A stretch of DNA of 13,203 nt from Candidatus Heimdallarchaeota archaeon (GTDB lineage: Archaea > Asgardarchaeota > Heimdallarchaeia > Heimdallarchaeales > Heimdallarchaeaceae). The stretch spans positions 1 to 13,203 of the forward strand of contig DXJF01000155.1 of the NCBI GenBank assembly GCA_019057375.1. Direction: 5' to 3'. Below the pieces are notes generated by a model, which saw nothing but the letters and a program-made list of their open reading frames with translations, did not search any database and was not told the origin of the DNA. Positions 1-12,799 of the stretch are shown here, one piece after another (position 1 is the first letter of the stretch; every line of letters begins with the position of its first letter). A program made the translations under genes and the position numbers.

Positions 1-81
1 AAAGAATATTTTGATACTTTAGAAATACCTGTTGAAATTCTTCCTTCAATATTGAGCAAAATTGACGATTTGGATTATTGA
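1..81 (+). CDS. 3' end of an upstream gene (partial), product unknown
   Basis: Frame 1 is open from base 1: KEYFDTLEIPVEILPSILSKIDDLDY, then TGA at 79-81. Composition is protein-like. Confidence 0.55.
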   Translation, partial: KEYFDTLEIPVEILPSILSKIDDLDY

Positions 82-116
82 ATCATAATCTGGAGGTTAA
101 ATAAAATTTTCTTATT

Positions 117-205
117 ACCTCTTCTTTCTTTTAAACACGTTAGATCTCAGATAAGAAGACATATTCAAAGAGTTTGGAAGCTCCAAGAAGGTGATCTTAA
201 CACAA
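117..205 (+). repeat. Copy A of an 89-bp imperfect dispersed direct repeat
   Basis: Manual ungapped alignment with 6103-6191 gives 72/89 identical positions. It starts with an identical ACCTCTTCTTTCTT and shares AGTTTGGAAnCTCCAAGAAGG. Confidence 0.85.
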
Positions 206-588
206 ATATACAGAATTTAAGAATAAATGTATTTAACTTAGGTATTGCAGATTCTTATAGAAACACATGGATAGCATTACTTTAGGTAATTGTAGTTTTC
301 ATCCTAAGATACTCAATCAAAAATCTATTAGCACTTGATTTTGAAAATATTGCTGCTAAATAAAATATATCTGTAGATGAAGCAATAAAAAACTCAAAGA
401 ATTAGAGAAATATAACGGAGAAGTTTTGCATCCTGCTCCTACCAAAATATGGGTTATTCACCTCTCTTCATTATCACCAACTATTCCACATGATGAAGGG
501 TAATGAAAGATATTACTTAAAAGATTCTGATAACATTGAATCAATAAAACATGAGCTTGTACTATCTGCTCTTCTTGAAATTAATTAA
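206..588 (+). pseudogene. Possible decayed coding sequence, family unknown
   Basis: Protein-like fragments in shifting frames, broken by stops: LLALDFENIAAK*NISVDEAIK / LKELEKYNGEVLHPAP / HMMKGNERYYLKDSDNIESIKHELVLSALLEIN*. Confidence 0.25.
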
Positions 589-595
589 CAAATTT

Positions 596-612
596 GCAGA
601 AATATTTAAATA
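596..612 (+). promoter_or_regulatory. Putative archaeal BRE/TATA promoter of the first cluster gene
   Basis: Purine-rich GCAGAAA followed by TATTTAAATA, about 45-50 nt upstream of ATG 659. Confidence 0.4.
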
Positions 613-658
613 TTATTAAATTAAAAGTACTATTTGAGTTAACAAATAAGTGATAAAT

Positions 659-1081
659 ATGGAAACAAAGGAAAAACTTCTTGTGGAAAAAATAAAATTC
701 CATACAGAAATTGAATTTAATGGTTCAGTAGCAGATTTTGTGGATTTTACTAAACAATTAGTAAATCTTGATAATACAAAAATCAGAGTAGAATGGGATG
801 ATGTTCACCCTACGGGATGCAGTAAGCTTGCAAGTTACAAATTCTTTGATAAAGAATTCACAGATAGGCACCTAAAAGACATTAGACCAATACAATTACA
901 AGACATCTATGGAGGAATCAGAACTCCCCATATCCATCTAGATGATTTTAATGTGATTTTTCTGAATAGAGATGTATTTAAACAAGTAGTTGATTACAGT
1001 GCATCTAGAATAAGCTCAGAAATTAGCAAAGATATAAACTTCGATCATGTAGAATTTATGGATAAAATGAGAAAACTATAA
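659..1081 (+). CDS. Uncharacterised ~140-aa protein with GGIRxPHxH motif; candidate substrate or partner of the adjacent radical SAM enzyme
   Basis: Clean ORF (track start GTG 650). ATG 659 is preceded by SD-like AAGTGA. Motifs EIEFNGSV, HPTGC and IYGGIRTPHIHL. Lies directly upstream of the rSAM/SPASM gene. Confidence 0.8.
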   Translation: METKEKLLVEKIKFHTEIEFNGSVADFVDFTKQLVNLDNTKIRVEWDDVHPTGCSKLASYKFFDKEFTDRHLKDIRPIQLQDIYGGIRTPHIHLDDFNVIFLNRDVFKQVVDYSASRISSEISKDINFDHVEFMDKMRKL

Positions 1082-1129
1082 TATTCTTATTATCTACCAA
1101 AACTAATTTATTTTTTTTGGAGATTTAAA

Positions 1130-2233
1130 ATGAAATGTTCGCTTAGCTTAACACATGACTGTAATATGGCTTGTAACTACTGCTATGCTGGGGTGAAAAA
1201 CTCAGAAGTAATGGATATTGAGATAGCAAAGAAGATTATTGATTTTATTTTTAAAACTATACCAAAAGACCAAAGTATTGAAATTAATTATTTTGGTGGT
1301 GAACCCTTTCTAGAATTTGATCTCATCAGAGAAATAACAAAATATGTACGGAAAATAGAGCAAAAATACAAAAATCCTGTTATGATTGGTATAACATCAA
1401 ATGGTACATTGCTAACAAGTGAAATATTAGATTACCTAAAACACGAAAGAATTAGTCTTTGTGTAAGTATTGATGGAAATCAGCAGGTGCATGATAGAAA
1501 TAGAAAATTTTCATCAGGAAAAGGAAGTTTTAGCTTAGTTAATGAGAAACTTGATTTAGCCTTAAGCATTCTTGACTACGTCCAAGTTAATGCAGTATAT
1601 GGACCAGATACTGTTGACAAATTACTTGAAACCGTTTCTTTCTTGTCAGAGAAGAATGTCTCTTCGATTCATCTAAATCCGAATATTACTGCTCAGTGGA
1701 GTAATGATTATTACCCAATTTTGAGAAAAAAATTTCAAGAAATTGCTGATTATTACATTTCTAGTTACACCAATGGTCAGGAAATTGCTATTAATTATAT
1801 TGACAACAAAATTATCATTTTTCTAAAAGGGGGGTATAGTGATTTTGATAAATGTCATATGGGAGAATTGGAGTGGGGATTCGCTCCAAGTGGAAATATA
1901 TATCCGTGTGAGAGATTAGTTGGTGATGATAACAATGAATCCTTTTGTATGGGAAATACACAAACAGGATTGAATGTTGATCGTCAATCCACAATTCTTT
2001 GGTCTAAGAATCAAATGGGAAACCTCAAGTGCAGAAATTGTGAGCTTCAGCAATATTGTATGAACTGGTGTGGTTGTACAAATTATTTTATGACTGGGAA
2101 AACGAATCAAACTGGAGAATTCATGTGTGCAAATGAACGCGCTGCAATTGAGGCTGCTAGAAGAGTTTTGATTTCACTGAAAGATAATCCATTATTCATC
2201 GATCATTTTTATCAATACTTACAAAGAAAATAA
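1130..2233 (+). CDS. Radical SAM protein with C-terminal SPASM domain (anSME/peptide-maturase-like)
   Basis: CNMACNYC (CxxxCxxC), FGGEPFL, TSNGTLL, VSIDG. SPASM cysteines in DKC...GNIYPC...CRNCELQQYCMNWCGC...FMC. GGAG SD at 1119-1122. Confidence 0.95.
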   Translation: MKCSLSLTHDCNMACNYCYAGVKNSEVMDIEIAKKIIDFIFKTIPKDQSIEINYFGGEPFLEFDLIREITKYVRKIEQKYKNPVMIGITSNGTLLTSEILDYLKHERISLCVSIDGNQQVHDRNRKFSSGKGSFSLVNEKLDLALSILDYVQVNAVYGPDTVDKLLETVSFLSEKNVSSIHLNPNITAQWSNDYYPILRKKFQEIADYYISSYTNGQEIAINYIDNKIIIFLKGGYSDFDKCHMGELEWGFAPSGNIYPCERLVGDDNNESFCMGNTQTGLNVDRQSTILWSKNQMGNLKCRNCELQQYCMNWCGCTNYFMTGKTNQTGEFMCANERAAIEAARRVLISLKDNPLFIDHFYQYLQRK

Positions 2234-2240
2234 AATGAGC

Positions 2241-2270
2241 AATGTATGTCTTCCCTATAAGAAATACATT
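2241..2270 (+). other. Inverted repeat/hairpin just after the rSAM/SPASM stop codon
   Basis: AATGTAT-g-TCTT-ccctat-AAGA-a-ATACATT: 7-bp and 4-bp stems separated by a 1x1 mismatch. Confidence 0.45.
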
Positions 2271-2305
2271 AACGCAATGTGAAATAGAAATCTTCTTATG
2301 AAACT

Positions 2306-2346
2306 ATCTGAAAACGTTTCAGATTTCTTATTTCTTATTGTTTTTT
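2306..2346 (+). terminator. Terminator-like hairpin with T-rich tail
   Basis: ATCTGAAA-acg-TTTCAGAT (perfect 8-bp stem, 2306-2324) followed by TTCTTATTTCTTATTGTTTTTT. Confidence 0.45.
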
Positions 2347-2412
2347 ACTACTATAAAATTCACTAAATCTCTATATACAAAAAACGATATAACGTTTCTT
2401 TGAGGTGACATT

Positions 2413-2802
2413 ATGAAGGAAGAGAGTTTTCCAAAATTTCGTGAAACAATAATAAAACCAACAGTAAAACAAATAATTGATACAATCGCTGATCCGCCAC
2501 CTGATCTTTACAGAATAATAACTAAAGATAGATGGAAACATATTATTGAAGCACAAATAAAATTAAAACTTAAATCAATTGAATTTGAGATAGAGTCACA
2601 AAAAACCACATTTCCCTTAACTATTACTTCAAAGAAAACAAATTGGTTTCTAGTAGAAATTAACGATAGTTTTGTTCTGATTGACACAGGCTATACAAGT
2701 GAGGGACTGGTTATCGAAGAAGCACTAGATAATGAGGGGTGTACATCTGCAAATCTTAATCTTATCTTATTAACTCATGCTTGGAAGAAAGAATACCATT
2801 AG
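2413..2802 (+). CDS. Chimeric ORF: N-terminal DPPP small-protein paralog (aa 1-~64) fused to a truncated metallo-beta-lactamase-fold fragment (aa ~65-123); may be a pseudogene
   Basis: The N-terminus aligns with 3255-3464 (FPxxxE, DPPP, IxxD[RK]WK, Q, EIE). The C-terminus NWFLVEINDSFVLIDTG...EGCTSANLNLILLTHA resembles the first strands of an MBL hydrolase but ends before a complete HxHxDH-type site. GAGGTGA SD at 2402-2408. Confidence 0.7.
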   Translation: MKEESFPKFRETIIKPTVKQIIDTIADPPPDLYRIITKDRWKHIIEAQIKLKLKSIEFEIESQKTTFPLTITSKKTNWFLVEINDSFVLIDTGYTSEGLVIEEALDNEGCTSANLNLILLTHAWKKEYH

Positions 2803-2812
2803 TATTTTTTGT

Positions 2813-3082
2813 TTATTTCTCAGATTGTATTTCTCTTATCTTTTTAATTACAGGAAACATATTGTTAAACTCAAAAACAATCTTTTTTTCTAATTCTTCA
2901 ATTTCTTCCTTTTTTGCATTAAATTCGTCTATATTTTCATCAATTAATTGCGTATCCACTCTCGCACCAAATCCGCTGATTTCGAAAATAAACTCGCTTT
3001 GAATATCCAATATTGCCTCTTCCAAGTCTAGAAGACTCCCAACAGTTGTTTCAATTTTTTCATCATACTTGTCTTTATTCAT
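2813..3082 (-). CDS. Small acidic, probably helical hypothetical protein (89 aa from MNKDK)
   Basis: GAGG SD is correctly spaced before ATG 3082 (track start 3094). TTTATATA box on the minus strand at 3116-3123. Rich in E/D/K/I. Confidence 0.7.
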   Translation of the reverse strand: MNKDKYDEKIETTVGSLLDLEEAILDIQSEFIFEISGFGARVDTQLIDENIDEFNAKKEEIEELEKKIVFEFNNMFPVIKKIREIQSEK

Positions 3083-3115
3083 AAACATCCTCAAACATTA
3101 AGATTTTCTTCAGAA

Positions 3116-3123
3116 TATATAAA
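3116..3123 (-). promoter_or_regulatory. Putative TATA box for the 89-aa gene
   Basis: Reads TTTATATA on the minus strand, about 35-40 nt upstream of ATG 3082. Confidence 0.5.
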
Positions 3124-3209
3124 CAACACCCTTATTGATATTACAGAGTTTAACCCGATTCAACATTCCATTAATAAATATACAAGAATATTAATTGATT
3201 CAGCTAAAG

Positions 3210-3247
3210 TTTATATATTTAAATAAATTAGTGTTTCTTTGAGGTGA
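3210..3247 (+). promoter_or_regulatory. Putative TATA box and SD for the DPPP peptide/B12-rSAM operon
   Basis: TTTATATA at 3210-3217 preceded by GCTAAAG. GAGGTGA at 3241-3247. Confidence 0.6.
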
Positions 3248-3254
3248 ATCGATT

Positions 3255-3464
3255 ATGGAAAAAAGATTTCCAGAATTAGGAGAACTAGTAAAATTTAAGC
3301 ATGTATTTGATCCACCACCTCCGTTTCTACATCTAATAGATGAGGATAAATGGAAAGATGTAGTTCAAATACAATTGGAATATGAAGCATTATTACTTAA
3401 ACATGAAATAGAAATTCTTACTGAAAAACTTCGAATGTACGAGAAATTGAAAAAGATTCTCTAG
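3255..3464 (+). CDS. 69-aa DPPP(P)-motif protein with a predicted amphipathic/coiled-coil C-terminal helix; candidate precursor or substrate
   Basis: Strong SD and TATA. VFDPPPPFL motif followed by a helix-like tail. Paralogous to the N-terminus of 2413-2802. Stop codon is 2 nt from the B12-rSAM TTG start. Confidence 0.8.
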   Translation: MEKRFPELGELVKFKHVFDPPPPFLHLIDEDKWKDVVQIQLEYEALLLKHEIEILTEKLRMYEKLKKIL

Positions 3465-3466
3465 GA

Positions 3467-5050
3467 TTGTTTTACTTAATGAACAATAATCTAATATCTT
3501 TCGTAGCACATAAGAATCAAGAAAATCTTGGTATTGGGTATTTATGCTCAATGTTACATTCTATAAACTTTGAGATTGAAATAATTGACTTCGATTTAGA
3601 AAAAGAAGAGATGCTAGAGAAATTAAATACATCAGATCCTTTAATTGTTGGCTTCTCTCTTATTTTTCAATTTTATTTATACAAATTTAAGAAAATTGTT
3701 AACTTTTTAAGAAGCAATGGTATCCAGTGTCATTTTACAGTTGGAGGACATTATCCTAGTCTCAGATATGATGATCTGCTCAACTACTTACCTGAGTTAG
3801 ACTCTGTTGTGAGATTTGAGGGGGAACATATAATCTGTGAATTAGCAGAAAAAATAAAGAAAGGAGAGGAATGGAGAAAAATCAAAGGGATTGCATATCT
3901 AGATAATGATACTCCATTTTCAAATGAACTTAGACCTCTGATTACAAATCTTGATTCTCTACCCTTTCCTTACAGATCAAAGGATAATCCTCATGAAATT
4001 CTAGGGAACAGAATATCCTATCTTTTAGCAAGTAGGGGGTGCATAAGAAATTGTTCTTTCTGTAGTGTCAGGAAATTTTACTCAACTCCAACAGGTAAAT
4101 TAAGGCGTAACAGAACCCCTGAAAATGTTGTTAAAGAAATTGAAGGATTACACAAGAATGATAACACTACAATCTTCTTATTTCAAGATGATGATTTCGT
4201 ATTACCTGGAAAAAAAGGATTAGAATGGATTAATAGCTTTGTAGAATTACTAGTATCTAAAAAACTAGGAGAAAAAATCCTCTGGAAAATAAGTTGTAGA
4301 TCTGATGAAATTAACTATGAACTTTTTAAAAGGATGAAAGAAGTTGGTTTAGCAACTGTCTATTTAGGGATTGAATCAGGAGTTGAACATGAATTAGAAA
4401 TTATGAATAAACAATTACACGTCAAGGATCATATTGAAGCTGTTAAAATTCTAAAATCACTTGACTTAACTTATGAATATGGTTTCATGTTATTTAATCC
4501 TTACAGTACTTTTGAAACAACTCAAAATAATGTTAAATTCTTAAAAGAAATATGTGGGGATGGAAGTGCTCCAATTGTGTTTTGCAAAATGGTACCTTAT
4601 GCAGGAACAGCTATCGAACAAAAGTTGATTGTAGAAAATCGATTGATAAAATCTGTTACGAATCCAGATTATGTTTTCCTAGATTCAAAACTAAATGAGT
4701 TTTACGATTTCTTTTCTTTGATTTTTAATGAATGGATTCATTCAAATCAAGGAATATTGACTCGCTTACGTTGGCACAGACTTGAGTTAGAAGTTCTAAA
4801 AAAGGATTATCCAGATGCAAAAGGATTCAAGGAGTACATAGTATTCCAGAAAAAAATAATAGCTGAATTTAATTCATTATTCTTTAAAATATTTGATAAA
4901 ACGAAGTCGTCATTTCATAATAATGATTTTGTTTCTTTTGCAACTAGAGAAGAAATTAGGAAACAATTAATCTCTGAGCAAAATAGGATTCTAGAAAAAT
5001 GGCATGGAGGAATAAGAGAATTTTCTAACCAAAACAGGGAACAAAGCTAA
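3467..5050 (+). CDS. B12-binding-domain radical SAM protein (class B methyltransferase-like)
   Basis: QENLGIGYL, VGGHYPSL, SRGCIRNCSFC (CxxxCxxC), FQDDDF, YLGIESG, GFMLFNP and PYAGT motifs. Start is TTG 3467 or ATG 3479. Confidence 0.93.
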   Translation: MFYLMNNNLISFVAHKNQENLGIGYLCSMLHSINFEIEIIDFDLEKEEMLEKLNTSDPLIVGFSLIFQFYLYKFKKIVNFLRSNGIQCHFTVGGHYPSLRYDDLLNYLPELDSVVRFEGEHIICELAEKIKKGEEWRKIKGIAYLDNDTPFSNELRPLITNLDSLPFPYRSKDNPHEILGNRISYLLASRGCIRNCSFCSVRKFYSTPTGKLRRNRTPENVVKEIEGLHKNDNTTIFLFQDDDFVLPGKKGLEWINSFVELLVSKKLGEKILWKISCRSDEINYELFKRMKEVGLATVYLGIESGVEHELEIMNKQLHVKDHIEAVKILKSLDLTYEYGFMLFNPYSTFETTQNNVKFLKEICGDGSAPIVFCKMVPYAGTAIEQKLIVENRLIKSVTNPDYVFLDSKLNEFYDFFSLIFNEWIHSNQGILTRLRWHRLELEVLKKDYPDAKGFKEYIVFQKKIIAEFNSLFFKIFDKTKSSFHNNDFVSFATREEIRKQLISEQNRILEKWHGGIREFSNQNREQS

Positions 5051-5129
5051 GAGATATCTAGAAAAGAATCTAAAAAATGAAAAAACTGATTATCAGGCAA
5101 ATTTTGCTAACAATCAGTAAATATCTTTA

Positions 5130-5867
5130 CTAATACACTATTGCTGAAGATGCCGAATTCCCGAAGTAGTTCCACCAAAATCCGAAAAATCCTAAATTGC
5201 ACCCTACGTAGAATCTAGCTCCTTTGTAATATGTATCTGAATATAAATATGCATAGCTTCCACATGAAAGTGATGCTGATTCAGCTCTGTTATCAAAACC
5301 ATACCAGCTAAGGTGTGGATAATATTTGGGGTATCTAGTATAACAGTAAGAGTATCCTCCTGGAAGAGTAATAGATGCACCACCCCACCAAGTATAATCA
5401 AATAGATGTAAACTATGGGTTGGTCTTTCATAATGTGGATCATGATTCTCTAGAATTTTTTGTATCTCTGCGTGTTGTTCTGGTTTGAGTTTATGTTTCT
5501 CTAAGAATTTGTTGTACTTTTCAGTTGCTTCTTCAACTTTTTTTACTTGTTGCTTTTTTATCTTCTCAAGTTCTTCTGGTGTTTTTTCTTTGGTAAATTT
5601 TTTAGCTAATTCTTTGTCTTTTTTGTATTGATCTAACAAGTCTCTATCCTCTAACCATTTTTCAAATTTCTCTTCAGTTGTAAAAGCATAAATCTTTCCA
5701 TCAGTTTCTGATTCTTTAGGTGCAGCAAAAAAAGGGATATTTTTTCCTTTTTCTTTCTTAAACTCTTCTGCTTCGTAATCTTTCTCAGGTCCTTTAATGT
5801 GTTTCTTATCTTCAGAAAGAGTATACTCCTCTCCATCAATTATTACTTTTGAAATATCTTTCTTCAT
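5130..5867 (-). CDS. 245-aa protein with a highly charged N-terminal region and a C-terminal beta/gamma-crystallin-like (two Greek key) domain
   Basis: GGAGGTTGA SD precedes ATG 5867 (MKKDISK), so the track start at 5897 is probably too long. The C-terminus has two similar units, LFDYTWWGG...HLSWYGFDNRAES and LYSDTYYKG...NLG...YFGNSASS, resembling crystallin Greek-key repeats. Confidence 0.65.
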   Translation of the reverse strand: MKKDISKVIIDGEEYTLSEDKKHIKGPEKDYEAEEFKKEKGKNIPFFAAPKESETDGKIYAFTTEEKFEKWLEDRDLLDQYKKDKELAKKFTKEKTPEELEKIKKQQVKKVEEATEKYNKFLEKHKLKPEQHAEIQKILENHDPHYERPTHSLHLFDYTWWGGASITLPGGYSYCYTRYPKYYPHLSWYGFDNRAESASLSCGSYAYLYSDTYYKGARFYVGCNLGFFGFWWNYFGNSASSAIVY

Positions 5868-6102
5868 ATATATCAACCTCCGTATACTATGAAGCAATTT
5901 GTACTCGCATATATTTATTTAAACGTTTGTATATTTGATTCGTTTTTGGTTTATAGTATTAGACAATGTTTTTATAGATGTTGGTTTGATGTAGCTTTTA
6001 TAATAAAAACAGATAGACAAGAAACTGTAGTTATTTAAAAGATATTAACTGAAAAATATCTGCTTATGATGCAATACAATATTTTGATTGTATCTTCCAA
6101 TA

Positions 6103-6191
6103 ACCTCTTCTTTCTTATAGATACTTTAGATTTCAAATAGGAAGATGAATTCATATAGTTTGGAATCTCCAAGAAGGGGACCTTAAAGCAA
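6103..6191 (+). repeat. Copy B of the 89-bp imperfect direct repeat
   Basis: 72/89 identical to 117-205. Ends 2 nt before the stop codon of the convergent gene at 6194. Confidence 0.85.
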
Positions 6192-6193
6192 CC

Positions 6194-7087
6194 TCAATCG
6201 ATCTCATCTTCTTGTACATCTTTTGATTTCTTAGCTTCTATAATTCGTTCCTCTGATTTATTTTCTAATAACAATTTTTCAATTGAGAAGAATCTTCTTC
6301 TAATTACCTTAATTAAGAAATGTAAAACAATTAACCCAAGAGCTATTAGATTAATATACCAATATTGTTTAGATAATGAATCATACCACATACCTACTAG
6401 TTTTAATCCTGGTAAGCATAGAATCCGAATCAGAGAAACGAAACAAAAGTAAATCACAGCAATGAAAATAAGTCTTTTCCAGTGTTTTATCTCTGAAAGC
6501 TCCTTTTTCTTTTGGGTTTCTACAGATTTCCTTGGAAAGAACATTCCGGTTCGTTGTCTGTACTCTAGATAGGAACTTCCATATTTTTTCAAAAGCTTTT
6601 TTTCTTCAAGTTCAGAAGTAACAACTAAAAACAATGAAAAAAGAGACCAAGATATAATTGATCCTGTTCTTATAAAAGGATGAACCGCCCATGGAAGATA
6701 GAGTGAAGTAGCTAATGTCATTAAAATCAACCCTAAATGCTGTGGATGTCTAATGAACTTATAAGGACCACCTGTTGCTAAATCCTGCTTCTTAATTTTA
6801 ACATTAGCTAAAGATAGTAAACCCCAGAGAAATAGCAGTAGACCAAGTATAAATAGAATTAACTCAATTGAGATAAATAAGGGGGCAATTTTGTCTTTTA
6901 CTGTAAATAGGGTTAATAACCAATATTTTCCATAAAATGAGAAAATCCAGTAAGAAGCAAAACCTATTGGTAAATAGTGGGTCATTGTTATCAGAATCCC
7001 AGCAATAATTGGAGTATAAATCCAGATTACAGCAGGTAAGAGAAGTAACTTCTCAATAATTCTTGAAATCAGATGAGCTTTTTTCAT
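6194..7087 (-). CDS. Isoprenylcysteine carboxyl methyltransferase / PEMT-family membrane methyltransferase
   Basis: Several hydrophobic helices. TGGPYKFIRHPQHLG and EEKKLLKKYGSSYLEYRQRTGMFFP are typical ICMT/Ste14-family motifs. Confidence 0.85.
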   Translation of the reverse strand: MKKAHLISRIIEKLLLLPAVIWIYTPIIAGILITMTHYLPIGFASYWIFSFYGKYWLLTLFTVKDKIAPLFISIELILFILGLLLFLWGLLSLANVKIKKQDLATGGPYKFIRHPQHLGLILMTLATSLYLPWAVHPFIRTGSIISWSLFSLFLVVTSELEEKKLLKKYGSSYLEYRQRTGMFFPRKSVETQKKKELSEIKHWKRLIFIAVIYFCFVSLIRILCLPGLKLVGMWYDSLSKQYWYINLIALGLIVLHFLIKVIRRRFFSIEKLLLENKSEERIIEAKKSKDVQEDEID

Positions 7088-7130
7088 GCCGCACTAGAGA
7101 TACCTTTGTTTTATTTAATTCTTGCTGAAA

Positions 7131-7266: not shown

Positions 7267-8679
7267 GTGTCAAACCATATTATGTCCGAAGCAACAAAAA
7301 TAATAGAACTAATAGACAAATTTCCTTTTCTAGAGGAGATATTAGTGGAATTAGATCCTATTTTAAAACGCTTTCAAAACCCTATTATTCGTAAAACTGT
7401 GGGTAAAAAAGCTACACTGACTGATGTTGCCAGTCTTATTAATCAAGATCTCAAATCGGTAATAGATTTTTTCTCAAGCAAAATTGAACAACACATAGGG
7501 GATAAAGTGGACGTACAAATTGGTTCAACTGGTAAAAGTGGTTTTGAAGATGAACATGTACGAAAGAGAGAAATGCTCAAAGCTCTTGTGCTGGAACTTC
7601 ACGCAGGAGGAGAAAAATCCGTACTGAAAGCTCGGTTCAAGGAAATATTAGGAGATGTAGAGGCTACAGATATAGCTTCAATGGAACAAGAGTTAATCAA
7701 TTCTGGAGAGTTAACAGTTGATCAAATCACCTTGTTATGTGATTTACATGTAGGAATCTTTGAGGATTCATTGGAAAAAAATCTTAGACCTGAAGAATCT
7801 CCAGGTCACCCAATACATACTTACATGGAAGAAAATCGTGTTGCTGAAGAGTTGATTGCAGATATCAGAGAAACTCCTACTCCTGAATTAATTCAAAAAC
7901 TAGCCGATATTGAGATTCATTATACTAGATTGGAAAACCAACTGTTTCCTATGTTAGAAAAGAAAGAGTTCGAAGGTCCTTCTCAAGTCATGTGGGCAAA
8001 ACATGATGAGGTTCGACAATTGATTCGTCAAGGAAGCGAAGTTGATGCGGAAGAATTTGCTACACAAGTAGAAGATATGATTTTTAAAGAAGAAACTATA
8101 CTCTTCCCCACAAGTTTAGAACTTTTGACCATTCAAGATTGGCAAAAGGTGAAAAATGGAGAAGAAGAAATAGGTTTTGCTTGGGTTTCTCCTGGTGATG
8201 AATGGAAACCTATTACTCCAGAAGTTATTCATAAAGTAGAGGAACCTCCACAATTAACAGATATCTTGTCTATGCAAACCGGAAAGCTTACACTTGAACA
8301 GATTAATTTGATTATGACTAATCTTCCAATTGAGATATCCTTCATTAATGAGAATGAGGAAGTAGCATATTACTCGGATACTAAAGAAAGAATTTTTCCC
8401 CGTAGTCCTGGTGTTATAGGTAGAAAAGTCCAAAGATGTCACCCACCAAAGAGTCTTGATAAAGTAATGAAAATTATAGAAGCGTTCAAGACTGGTCAAA
8501 AAGATGTAGCTGAATTCTGGATAAATATGAATGGGAAATATATTCACATACGTTACTTCGCAATTCGAGATAACTCTGGAAAATATCGCGGGTCATTAGA
8601 GGTTATGCAGAATGTTACATCCATTCGAGCATTAGAGGGAGAAAGAAGATTGATTAATTGGGGAGAAGATGCTAAGTAG
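7267..8679 (+). CDS. DUF438-family protein (DUF1858-like N-terminus, DUF438, hemerythrin-like domain, C-terminal PAS_10)
   Basis: ELHAG, CDLHVGIF, PGHPIHTYMEEN, HYTRLENQLFP, GPSQVMWAKHDEVR, KEETILFP, RIFPRSPGVIGRKVQRCHPPKS, YFAIRDNSGKYRGSLEV. Confidence 0.92.
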   Translation: MSNHIMSEATKIIELIDKFPFLEEILVELDPILKRFQNPIIRKTVGKKATLTDVASLINQDLKSVIDFFSSKIEQHIGDKVDVQIGSTGKSGFEDEHVRKREMLKALVLELHAGGEKSVLKARFKEILGDVEATDIASMEQELINSGELTVDQITLLCDLHVGIFEDSLEKNLRPEESPGHPIHTYMEENRVAEELIADIRETPTPELIQKLADIEIHYTRLENQLFPMLEKKEFEGPSQVMWAKHDEVRQLIRQGSEVDAEEFATQVEDMIFKEETILFPTSLELLTIQDWQKVKNGEEEIGFAWVSPGDEWKPITPEVIHKVEEPPQLTDILSMQTGKLTLEQINLIMTNLPIEISFINENEEVAYYSDTKERIFPRSPGVIGRKVQRCHPPKSLDKVMKIIEAFKTGQKDVAEFWINMNGKYIHIRYFAIRDNSGKYRGSLEVMQNVTSIRALEGERRLINWGEDAK

Positions 8680-10142: not shown

Positions 10143-11537
10143 TTGGCAGGATTGTTAGGAGAGTTACAGTGGATAGGAACAATACTCATTGTAATCGTCG
10201 TTCTAGCAACAATCATATTACTAACAAAAGAGGGGATTGATTCTACAAAAATCACTGCTACTGGTGCATTAGTAGTTTCATTATTATATCTAATACTTAT
10301 GGATTGGGAGAAAGGTTTTAGAGACAATTTAGCATTTGAAGAAGTACCTCACAATTTTCTAGAAGCCTTAGCAAAAACAGTTAATATAGAAGCTATACTA
10401 ATTATATTTTCTATAGGTATAATAGTAGCTATTACCAAGGGTGCGGGTTTTTTTGACTTTGTATCTCTATATATTGTTAAATTGACCAGAGGTGATCCGA
10501 AAAAATTAATATTGGCATTAGGAGGTCTAACATTCTTTGTAAGTATGTTCTTTGATAATTTAAGCGCTATTATTCTTCTAGGGTCTTTAACAGTTGTTAC
10601 ATGCAAACAGCTAGAAATTAATCCAGAACCGTATGTATTATTCGTAGGAATTAACACAATTATAGGAGGGTTACCTACTCCTGTTTCTTCGATTCCCAAT
10701 ATTATCTTCTTTAACTTATATCCAGAGGAAGGAATGAGTTTCATCAAATTTACAGCGTATATGTTCCCTATTGCCATTCTTTTCTTTGCGATTGCGTCTG
10801 CTTTTTTCTTCTTTGTTTATAGGAAGCAGCTCAGGATCAAAGTTACTGATGAGAAAAAAGAACAAATAGGAAGAATTAATCCTTGGTCAGGTATTGCTGA
10901 TAGAAAAAACATCTGGAAATCATTAATTCTACTCAGCTTTCTTTTTGTAGGATTTTTACTTACAAGCATTCCAAGTAATCCTCTAGATGTCGCTCTAATG
11001 GCTTTGATATCGGTCTTTTTCGGTCTTTTTCTATTCAGAACAGATTTGAAACGTTATCTTCGAGAAGGAGTCGAATGGGAGATGATTATTTTTGCTATCG
11101 CTTTATTTGTTTTAATGGGACTTTTAACCGCTGCTGGAGCTTTACTACCATTAACTAATATGCTTACAGGTGTGCTAGGTCCAGACCCAACAACAGGAGG
11201 TTTAATTTTGGTTGCAGTAATTATCGGTGCTGTAGGTTTACCAATCGCAGGATTTTTGAATAGTTTTTCAGCGGCACTTATTTTCTCCTATATCTTTAAG
11301 GCTTTACCCGCTGGATTATTAACCGGTTTATGGTTCGGTTTTGTTCTTTCTGGGAATATCGGGGGTGCATTGACCCCTCTTGGATCAATTACTATTCTAA
11401 TGTCACTAGAGATACTCAATAGGGAAGGATATCCTATATCCTTTCTCAAATATGTAAAAAGGATGCTACCTTTAACATTAGCATGTGGAGTGTTGGGTGT
11501 GGCGTATTCAATCTTTCTAATAGCTTTGGGGTTGTAG
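10143..11537 (+). CDS. ArsB/NhaD/CitMHS (ion transporter superfamily) membrane permease
   Basis: Many hydrophobic segments. SMFFDNLSAII, IIGGLPTPVSSIPNII and SGNIGGALTPLGSITIL motifs. GGTGA SD before the TTG start. Confidence 0.85.
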   Translation: MAGLLGELQWIGTILIVIVVLATIILLTKEGIDSTKITATGALVVSLLYLILMDWEKGFRDNLAFEEVPHNFLEALAKTVNIEAILIIFSIGIIVAITKGAGFFDFVSLYIVKLTRGDPKKLILALGGLTFFVSMFFDNLSAIILLGSLTVVTCKQLEINPEPYVLFVGINTIIGGLPTPVSSIPNIIFFNLYPEEGMSFIKFTAYMFPIAILFFAIASAFFFFVYRKQLRIKVTDEKKEQIGRINPWSGIADRKNIWKSLILLSFLFVGFLLTSIPSNPLDVALMALISVFFGLFLFRTDLKRYLREGVEWEMIIFAIALFVLMGLLTAAGALLPLTNMLTGVLGPDPTTGGLILVAVIIGAVGLPIAGFLNSFSAALIFSYIFKALPAGLLTGLWFGFVLSGNIGGALTPLGSITILMSLEILNREGYPISFLKYVKRMLPLTLACGVLGVAYSIFLIALGL

Positions 11538-11617: not shown

Positions 11618-12799
11618 TTAAAAGAGATTTAGCTCTTTGTGTTTTTCAACTATTTTTTCTGCCATTATATCTAATGCTTTAAAATCCTCTTCTTTTGGGT
11701 GACCTTTGGTATAAACAGGTTCTAAAATCTCAACTTCCTTTAATCCAGGTACCATGCTGACAACTTGGTCAATGGTCTTTGTAAACCATCCATAAGAGCC
11801 AATAACTGAAATTAGTTTAATTTTTGGTTTCAAAGCATTTAGTAGATAGGTTGCATAAACTGCTAATGGGTGTGGACCAGCATGAACTGTTGGAGTGCCA
11901 AGAATCACCGTAGCTGCATCAACTAGAGTTATAGCAAGTTTACCTATATCTACAACAGCTAAATCAAACTGATAGACAGTTACATCTTTTTTTGCTAGAG
12001 CACCAACTAAGTATTCAACCATGATCCTTGTGCTTCCGTGCATTGATACATAAGGAATAACAACAACATTTTTTGGAGTATCTGAAATCCAATCTTCATA
12101 AGCATCTATTATGAAAGAGGGTTTGTCATAGATAGGACCATGACTAGGAGCTATCAATTGAATTTCCATTTTTTTTACTTTCTCAATGTTTTTTCGAATA
12201 ATTTTACTGAAAGGCATCATTATTTCAGCAAAATATCTTTTAGCAGCTTCATAGACTAATCCTTCATCTCTAACATAGAGATCAGTTGTTGCAACATGTG
12301 AGCCAAAAAAGTCACAAGAAAAGAGTATCTTATCTTCTACAAGGTAAGAAACCATTGTTTCTGGCCAATGAACCCAAGGAGTATGGATGAATTTTAAAGT
12401 CTTATCCCCTAAAGAAATTTCCTCCCCGTCTTCTACAATCTGTATTTGTTCTGGAGAAATCAATAAATGATCTATTAGCATTTCTTTTCCTTTTTTAGTT
12501 GCGAGAACTAATGCAGAAGGATATTTCTTAAGAACTGTTGGTATTGCTCCTGAATGATCTTGTTCTGTATGGCTAGATACAATGTAATCTATTTTTTCAA
12601 CATCTTTCAATTGAGTCAAGAGTATATTAATCATTTTTGGATCTACAGTGTCAATTAGAACATTCTTTTCACTACCTATAATCAAATATGAATTGTAACT
12701 GGTTCCATCAGGAAGAGGTATAAGGGAATCAAACAACCTTCTATCCCAATCAATTGCACCTAACCAAAAGACATTTTCTCTTATTTTTCTCTTTTTCAT
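11618..12799 (-). CDS. fprA: Flavodiiron protein (FprA family A-type flavoprotein)
   Basis: GTSYNSYLI, LIDTV, SHTEQDHSG (HxExDH), HWPE, SCDFFGSH, APSHGP, and a C-terminal flavodoxin domain (YVSMHGST, GSYGW). Confidence 0.95.
   Translation of the reverse strand: MKKRKIRENVFWLGAIDWDRRLFDSLIPLPDGTSYNSYLIIGSEKNVLIDTVDPKMINILLTQLKDVEKIDYIVSSHTEQDHSGAIPTVLKKYPSALVLATKKGKEMLIDHLLISPEQIQIVEDGEEISLGDKTLKFIHTPWVHWPETMVSYLVEDKILFSCDFFGSHVATTDLYVRDEGLVYEAAKRYFAEIMMPFSKIIRKNIEKVKKMEIQLIAPSHGPIYDKPSFIIDAYEDWISDTPKNVVVIPYVSMHGSTRIMVEYLVGALAKKDVTVYQFDLAVVDIGKLAITLVDAATVILGTPTVHAGPHPLAVYATYLLNALKPKIKLISVIGSYGWFTKTIDQVVSMVPGLKEVEILEPVYTKGHPKEEDFKALDIMAEKIVEKHKELNLF

Follow-up and report, generated by a model that had tools for sequence, protein, structure and literature searches.

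A radical S-adenosylmethionine (SAM) enzyme encoded beside the gene for its small substrate is a known theme. Among the radical SAM/SPASM enzymes, QhpD, known from the quinohemoprotein amine dehydrogenase gamma subunit, is a precedent for the modification of a small protein and not of a short peptide. PqqD and MftB are the partners of PqqE and MftC, SPASM enzymes that lack the recognition element (RRE) for peptides that are made on the ribosome and modified after translation (RiPPs). The characterised class B radical SAM enzymes that act on peptides or proteins are mostly methyltransferases, PoyC, ApyD, Mmp10 and MgmA being examples. ApyD, a cobalamin (B12)-dependent radical SAM enzyme (B12-rSAM), makes beta-methyltyrosine and is a precedent for peptide/protein C-methylation (PMC10635010). 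Here we consider a locus of an Asgard-type archaeon that both resembles and differs from these systems. The window, that is, the whole stretch of DNA analysed, is an entire 13.2-kb contig (DXJF01000155.1; 13,203 nucleotides, 30% G+C) of the Candidatus Heimdallarchaeota archaeon assembly GCA_019057375.1, a 3.47-Mb, 89%-complete genome. In the block at positions 659-5050, a gene for a GGIRxPHxH protein of 140 residues precedes that for a radical SAM/SPASM enzyme (pair A), and a gene for a DPxP protein of 69 residues precedes that for a B12-rSAM (pair B).

What does the side-by-side occurrence of two such pairs mean? The earlier note on this DNA took the block for a single, undescribed two-radical-SAM modification system with the small proteins as its substrates. 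With rather more belief than doubt, we read the block, on sequence evidence, as two independent two-gene modules, each made up of a radical SAM enzyme and its own dedicated small protein, which is in each case probably the substrate. The sequences show the gene content, the family membership as far as superfamilies go, and the pairing of each small protein, in other genomes, with its own enzyme clade; the substrate role, the modification site and the chemistry we infer. The four genes are these:

659..1081, + strand: pair A small protein, GGIRxPHxH family; 140 residues from ATG, with GGIRTPHIH at residues 85-93 and a middle segment of the PHxAGC type

1130..2233, + strand: pair A enzyme, a CteB/PapB-like radical SAM/SPASM protein of 367 residues with the Pfam domains Radical_SAM and Fer4_12

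3255..3464, + strand: pair B small protein, DPxP family; 69 residues, KHVFDPPPPFL followed by an amphipathic helix

3479..5050, + strand: pair B enzyme, a class B (cobalamin-binding) radical SAM protein; the listed open reading frame (ORF) runs from TTG 3467

Comparison with an 89%-identical orthologue makes ATG 3479 the likely true start of the pair B enzyme. The ORFs named in the earlier note were all recovered on the + strand by the ORF listing, with the coordinates used here. Neither small ORF has arisen by chance, since conserved homologues of both occupy this position next to the respective enzyme clade in many further genomes.

The DPxP protein and its class B radical SAM enzyme

How closely is the DPxP protein tied to its neighbouring enzyme? 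When one genome per prokaryotic species was scanned, 407 stretches were found to encode relatives of the B12-rSAM, and the best 80 of these (39-53% identical) were taken with their flanks. A motif search finds a small upstream D-P-x-P ORF in 66 of the 80 loci. A hidden Markov model (HMM) of the DPxP family, made from 64 unique sequences, places such an ORF directly upstream in 79 of the 81 locus entries that have enough upstream DNA, and in 76 of 78 when the external loci are counted, so that the suggested evolutionary tie between DPxP protein and B12-rSAM is borne out. The hosts span Acidobacteriota, Alpha-, Gamma- and Deltaproteobacteria, Verrucomicrobiota, Nitrospiraceae, Actinomycetota (Kitasatospora), Promethearchaeota and Bathyarchaeia, and cultured strains are among them, including Kitasatospora aburaviensis JCM 4613 and Limobrevibacterium gyesilva RN2-1. 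When all ORFs within 6 kb are clustered, every other gene family is limited to at most about 11 of the 81 neighbourhoods, and no protease or exporter is conserved across them. The pair B cassette consists of two genes only.

Within the archaeal phylum the cassette is scarce: the DPxP profile is matched in 3 of 400 genomes, and in none of the 24 genomes of the same genus that were searched. In the two other positive phylum genomes, the DPxP gene adjoins a 53%-identical B12-rSAM gene. An orthologous pair from another sample, with 83% (small protein) and 89% (enzyme) identity, has a completely different downstream neighbourhood.

The DPxP proteins share the consensus L-x-F-x-P-x-W-[IFW]-x-D-P-[IVPG]-P-[PEW]-[WF]-L, after which comes an amphipathic helix some 40 residues long. 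By column counts, the Asp of the motif is present in 76 of 76 sequences and the Pro after it in 74 of 76; in the 69-residue protein these are D19 and P20. In L005, L014, L021 and L052, a DPxP(W/F)P motif occurs two to four times ahead of a single helix, an arrangement typical of multi-site substrates, and some members of the family have Lys/Ala-rich N-termini. There is no Pfam or NCBIfam model for the DPxP protein, its database members are all annotated 'hypothetical protein', and the ESM Atlas gave no usable match for either the 69-residue or the 140-residue protein.

The pair B enzyme has a B12-binding domain (PF02310, residues 18-126, E=2.5e-15) and a Radical_SAM domain (PF04055, E=1.3e-17) with three invariant cysteines, C192, C196 and C199, in CX3CX2C. 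A class B enzyme is marked by a B12-binding Rossmann domain at the N-terminus together with a radical SAM core bearing CX3CX2C, and the pair B enzyme is in this respect like ApyD, PoyC, Mmp10 and MgmA. In the AlphaFold2 (AF2) model (pLDDT 92, pTM 0.90), the Rossmann domain and the radical SAM barrel are joined by a C-terminal four-helix bundle. Foldseek matches this model to OxsB, TsrM, MgmA, CysS and TokK at E values of 1e-15 to 1e-23 (1e-19 to 1e-23 for OxsB, TsrM and MgmA) and 13-20% identity, with OxsB the best; the predicted structure thus resembles MgmA (9ccb), TsrM, CysS and TokK, whereas in sequence the enzyme is at most 20% identical to the solved B12-rSAMs. The NCBIfam scores are all far below the family cut-offs, as with BchE (133 bits against 481), PhpK (117 against 600) and ApyD (93 against 750), and the cut-off of no named B12-rSAM equivalog is reached, HpnR, HpnJ, the methyl-coenzyme M reductase Gln methylase and others included.

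As in the systems of the peptide and protein C-methyltransferases, the pair B enzyme gene adjoins a ribosomally made candidate substrate. The differences are that no RRE is detected in the pair B enzyme, which has the four-helix bundle instead, while ApyD does have an RRE; that the partner belongs to an unnamed family with an invariant Asp-Pro motif; and that no protease or exporter is conserved nearby. Because the family has a short, invariant and sometimes repeated linear motif, the gene pairing is strict and nothing else is conserved in the vicinity, we consider the DPxP protein the probable substrate of the B12-rSAM. We suggest that the enzyme would bind the protein through the amphipathic helix, perhaps by means of its own C-terminal four-helix bundle, and would then modify the conserved W-x-x-D-P-x-P-x-W segment. 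By analogy with the class B enzymes that methylate peptides and proteins, the most likely reaction would be a cobalamin-dependent C-methylation at or beside the invariant Asp-Pro. A canonical RiPP cluster would have a precursor with a cleavable leader and a conserved protease or exporter, and pair B does not have this composition. Since the cassette comes with no protease or exporter, and since the N-termini of some members are rich in Lys and Ala, the probable product is a modified small protein inside the cell and not a secreted peptide. The earlier note had reported that peptidase, exporter and sulfatase genes are missing from the block, and likewise none is detected by Pfam and NCBIfam scans of window positions 1-7100.

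The GGIRxPHxH protein and its SPASM enzyme

The pair A enzyme matches Pfam Radical_SAM at E=2e-13, with C11, C15 and C18 forming CX3CX2C, and has a complete seven-cysteine SPASM motif (C242-x12-G-x4-C260, C301-x2-C304-x5-C310-x3-C314, C333); both sets of cysteines are invariant in the clade alignment. With CX3CX2C and the pattern CX9-15GX4C ... CX2CX5CX3C ... C both in place, it is a member of the radical SAM/SPASM superfamily. It is of the same superfamily as the thioether-forming maturases CteB, PapB and QhpD and has their order of domains, in which a radical SAM core is combined with a complete SPASM domain bearing two auxiliary clusters, and in those systems as in pair A a small-protein gene lies alongside. 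The best match in the Protein Data Bank (PDB) is CteB (5wgg, residues 101-445, E=3.9e-36); as the alignment to CteB begins only at residue 101, the N-terminal RRE is lacking. The PapB model (NF047865) gives 237 bits (E=3.1e-70) and its curated cut-off of 340 is not reached. The ranthipeptide systems of PapB and CteB bring together a Cys-containing precursor with a CX3(D/E) acceptor and an RRE that binds the leader. In contrast, pair A has neither the acceptor nor the RRE, and the partner, a 140-residue protein from an unnamed family, has one Cys (GCSKLAS), which is not universal, and no acidic residue at +4.

The GGIRxPHxH family is rare, with 28 relatives at E<1e-3 in an exhaustive HMMER search of 1.84 billion protein representatives; a word-based homologue search with the 140-residue protein recovered only the query itself. 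In the family alignment G53, G85, G86, H91 and H93 are invariant, and the middle segment is either rich in Pro and Trp or of the form PHxAGC, where the His co-varies with the Cys. No match to the protein is found in Pfam or NCBIfam, and its AF2 model (pLDDT 81) has no PDB match at Foldseek E<=0.001; the best Z in a wide VIA-align search was 3.8. Eleven other contexts have a GGIRxPHxH homologue at E<0.01 (L085, L086, L089, L096, L097, L098, L099, L100, L101, L102 and L105), and in every one of them it adjoins the same SPASM clade, with enzymes 38-65% identical to that of the window. Here too the proposed tie between small protein and neighbouring enzyme holds. L098 has two tandem paralogues of the small protein, and L106 shows motif-level resemblance only (GGWPGCHLH, E=7.4). 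In the closest relative of pair A (53% and 65% identical), unrelated genes follow.

Might pair A be a relative of the pyrroloquinoline quinone (PQQ) and mycofactocin systems? Like PqqE/PqqD/PqqA and MftC/MftB/MftA, it combines an RRE-less SPASM enzyme of about 370 residues with a small soluble protein. Unlike them, it has a small protein in which the searches made show no PqqD/RRE similarity: Pfam at E values up to 1 finds none in 27 GGIRxPHxH members, and hhalign of the 140-residue family against the N-terminus of an RRE-bearing SPASM enzyme gives a probability of 0.1. No conserved micro-ORF of the PqqA/MftA kind, such as a hidden precursor would need, is shared among the 8 pair A loci searched, and the NCBIfam models of the PQQ and mycofactocin enzymes are not among the 25 of 73 pair A enzyme matches listed. 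We consider it probable, from the sequences, that the 140-residue protein is the substrate of the SPASM enzyme, a partner role being less likely. The enzyme would modify the 140-residue protein intramolecularly, by a crosslink or something like it, and the variable middle segment (PHxAGC or Pro/Trp-rich) and the invariant GGIRxPHxH loop are candidate sites.

One system or two

Do the two pairs belong together? In the 80 pair B loci neither the 140-residue protein nor the SPASM clade occurs (L026 shows no more than a weak radical SAM match, partial and at 20% identity), and no pair A locus has a DPxP protein, the DPxP HMM finding no match in the pair A loci or in 80 further SPASM loci. The single two-radical-SAM system of the earlier note is therefore not what related loci show, and the juxtaposition of pairs A and B is specific to this contig. 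In our reading both modules would be neighbours within an accessory segment of the genome of an Asgard-type archaeon. That the two enzymes form an integrated system and work on the small proteins in a single pathway, for example by both modifying the 140-residue or the DPPP proteins, seems to us quite improbable. It is true that the genes lie on one strand within 4.4 kb, that a repeat of about 100 nucleotides brackets the block, and that the cassettes are rare enough in the phylum (7 of 400 and 3 of 400 genomes, and 0 of 24 in the same genus with these queries) to make a chance adjacency unlikely. The closest relatives of each pair (53% identity for pair A, 83-89% for pair B), however, are without the other pair in the sequence available, and the same genome has a second complete pair B that stands alone on C111, a contig of 4.5 kb; its enzyme and that of the window are 63% identical. 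Moreover, a gene remnant and an ORF on the opposite strand break up the block; this ORF, at 2813-3094, and intergenic gaps of 180 and 450 nucleotides divide it into at least three transcription units. B12-type radical SAM genes do occur near pair A in the distant pair A loci L098 and L100, but they are of other clades, with 28% and 21% identity.

The presence of those B12-type genes is also one of several points that weigh against two modules each acting on its own small protein: a looser recurrent link of pair A with B12-rSAMs may exist, and a loose gathering of such cassettes in accessory islands is possible. Pair A of L100 sits inside a large multi-radical-SAM cluster with Cys-containing candidate precursors of its own. 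The 140-residue protein is conserved end to end, with an invariant HxH, which would also suit a metal-binding partner or a chaperone. About 10 of 27 GGIRxPHxH relatives, roughly a third, lack the Cys, and a PapB-type Cys-to-acid thioether therefore cannot be the universal reaction. On the side of pair B, class B reactions other than methylation occur, as in BchE, OxsB and HpnJ, and the top NCBIfam score of the enzyme is that to BchE. Might the small proteins then be obligate accessory subunits, for chaperoning, recognition or activation, the true substrate being a micro-peptide, another protein or a small molecule? We regard this as unlikely, and a partner or chaperone role of the 140-residue protein remains a real rival. 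A SPASM enzyme without RRE, like PqqE and MftC, the invariant GG and HxH of its fully conserved companion, the separate precursor-like peptides of L100 and the winged-helix proteins in the top (non-significant) Foldseek rows for the 140-residue model would all fit such a role. It is difficult to square with the missing PqqD/RRE signal in the 140-residue family and the missing conserved micro-ORF around pair A loci. The conserved part of the DPxP protein, moreover, is a short linear motif, in some members with two to four repeats, and pair B has no other conserved neighbour able to encode a substrate.

The chemistry of pair B raises a separate question. If the DPxP protein is the substrate, the enzyme might act on it without methylating, by forming a C-C or C-heteroatom crosslink from a flanking Trp or Phe to the Asp-Pro or by an oxidative rearrangement, which we judge decidedly unlikely. 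Most characterised class B enzymes of peptides and proteins are methyltransferases, and the family scores, all being far below their cut-offs, do not discriminate between reactions; the highest, at 133 bits, is nonetheless that of a cyclase. OxsB, the best structural match, is not a methylase, and conserved aromatic residues flank the motif. A review statement, as quoted in PMC10635010, has B12-rSAMs also forming C-S and C-P bonds and carrying out ring contractions and C-C cyclisations.

Two of the distant pair A loci are of interest in their own right. L100 (GCA_003353855.1, PIVS01000017.1) encodes, at 5448-6053, two tandem peptides of 84-99 residues ending in MIAKDGCISAPSGPGC. At least five radical SAM genes are found in its cluster, including those for an RRE-bearing SPASM enzyme, a pair-A-type SPASM enzyme with a 145-residue protein, and three large B12-like enzymes, and the whole looks like an uncharacterised multi-radical-SAM peptide cluster. 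At L098:8474-9223, directly after a distant B12-rSAM gene whose product is 28% identical to the window enzyme, lies the gene for a 249-residue protein whose three EPAH(W/F) repeats include EPAHWFDPRL; it may be an analogous, repeat-bearing substrate of that enzyme.

Genomic setting and meaning of the two cassettes

The genome encodes TBP and a Snf7-type ESCRT-III protein, both above the Pfam cut-offs, and the closest homologues of the window genes are in metagenome-assembled genomes of Promethearchaeota and Bathyarchaeia; the host, earlier called a probable archaeon, is confirmed as such. Between the two pairs lie two further ORFs:

2413..2802, + strand: orphan DPxP gene joined in frame to a truncated piece of a metallo-beta-lactamase gene; 129 residues, with ADPPPDLY

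2813..3094, - strand: acidic ORF of 93 residues; best Pfam match SSO6904, sub-threshold at E=0.044

The first of these had been described as a second DPPP paralog between the enzymes. The ORF and its ADPPPDLY are indeed there, but it is a chimera, with a DPxP module at about 2413-2620 and a metallo-beta-lactamase remnant at about 2620-2799. Residues 1-69 of its product are 53% identical to the DPxP protein of C111 and about 30% identical to the neighbour encoded at 3255. The last 55 residues are an N-terminal metallo-beta-lactamase fragment (LIDTG ... LLTHAWKKEYH) in which the HxHxDH motif is degenerate, residues 76-123 matching PF00753 (E=1.5e-5, profile positions 6-52); its nearest relative in the genome is at 26761-26925 of contig C5 (44% identical). 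The gene retains the shared GTTTCTTTGAGGTGA leader and has a 59-nucleotide leader in common with the gene at 3255. To judge from these matches, it is an orphan, rearranged DPxP copy. The acidic ORF was found in no related locus of either pair.

The repeat mentioned above lies at 106-205 and 6092-6191 of the window, bracketing a block of 6 kb; its copies are 79-85% identical, and the contig begins 105 nucleotides to the left of the first. At least five copies are present in the genome, including C103:1620-1729, C17:16206-16305 and C111:2121-2178; one copy, a partial one, stands about 140 nucleotides upstream of the second DPxP gene on C111. The repeat has no Rfam match, and could be a small mobile or regulatory element that marks accessory insertions. 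Rfam and tRNA scans of the window find no RNA genes. Elsewhere in the window, 5130-5897 (- strand) encodes a protein of 255 residues whose N-terminal half is rich in Lys and Glu and whose very aromatic C-terminal domain abounds in Tyr, Phe, Trp and Gly; for this protein there is no Pfam/NCBIfam family and no paralogue in the genome. A 470-residue protein with DUF1858, DUF438, hemerythrin and PAS_10 domains, encoded at 7267-8679 (+ strand), is probably O2/NO- or iron-sensing; near it are a CitMHS/ArsB-type transporter gene (10143-11537) and, at 11618-12799 (- strand), a gene for an ODP-type metallo-beta-lactamase/flavodoxin-like protein.

What, then, would be new? The claim that no named family fits stands, as neither enzyme reaches any curated NCBIfam cut-off and neither small protein is in Pfam or NCBIfam; the novelty lies in two small-protein families outside these collections, with enzymes under every curated family cut-off. 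In a full-text literature search, neither a DPxP/B12-rSAM family nor a GGIRxPHxH/SPASM family came to light, which is no proof of novelty. We put it forward tentatively, with somewhat less than even confidence, that DPxP/B12-rSAM is an undescribed and phylogenetically very broad system making a new radical modification on the Asp-Pro of an intracellular protein, and that GGIRxPHxH/SPASM is a second, rarer system of the same logic. There is a lesson in the locus as well, in that two rare cassettes side by side on one contig did not mean one pathway. With a compact two-gene cassette, a sharply defined invariant motif and cultured hosts, the chemistry of pair B is directly testable. If the proposal is true, DPxP/B12-rSAM would be a post-translational modification of a protein and not a route to a secreted natural product. 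To our knowledge, B12-dependent radical chemistry on proteins rather than metabolites is represented by few cases, the methyl-coenzyme M reductase methylases being the known examples, and an intracellular modified DPxP protein would add one more.

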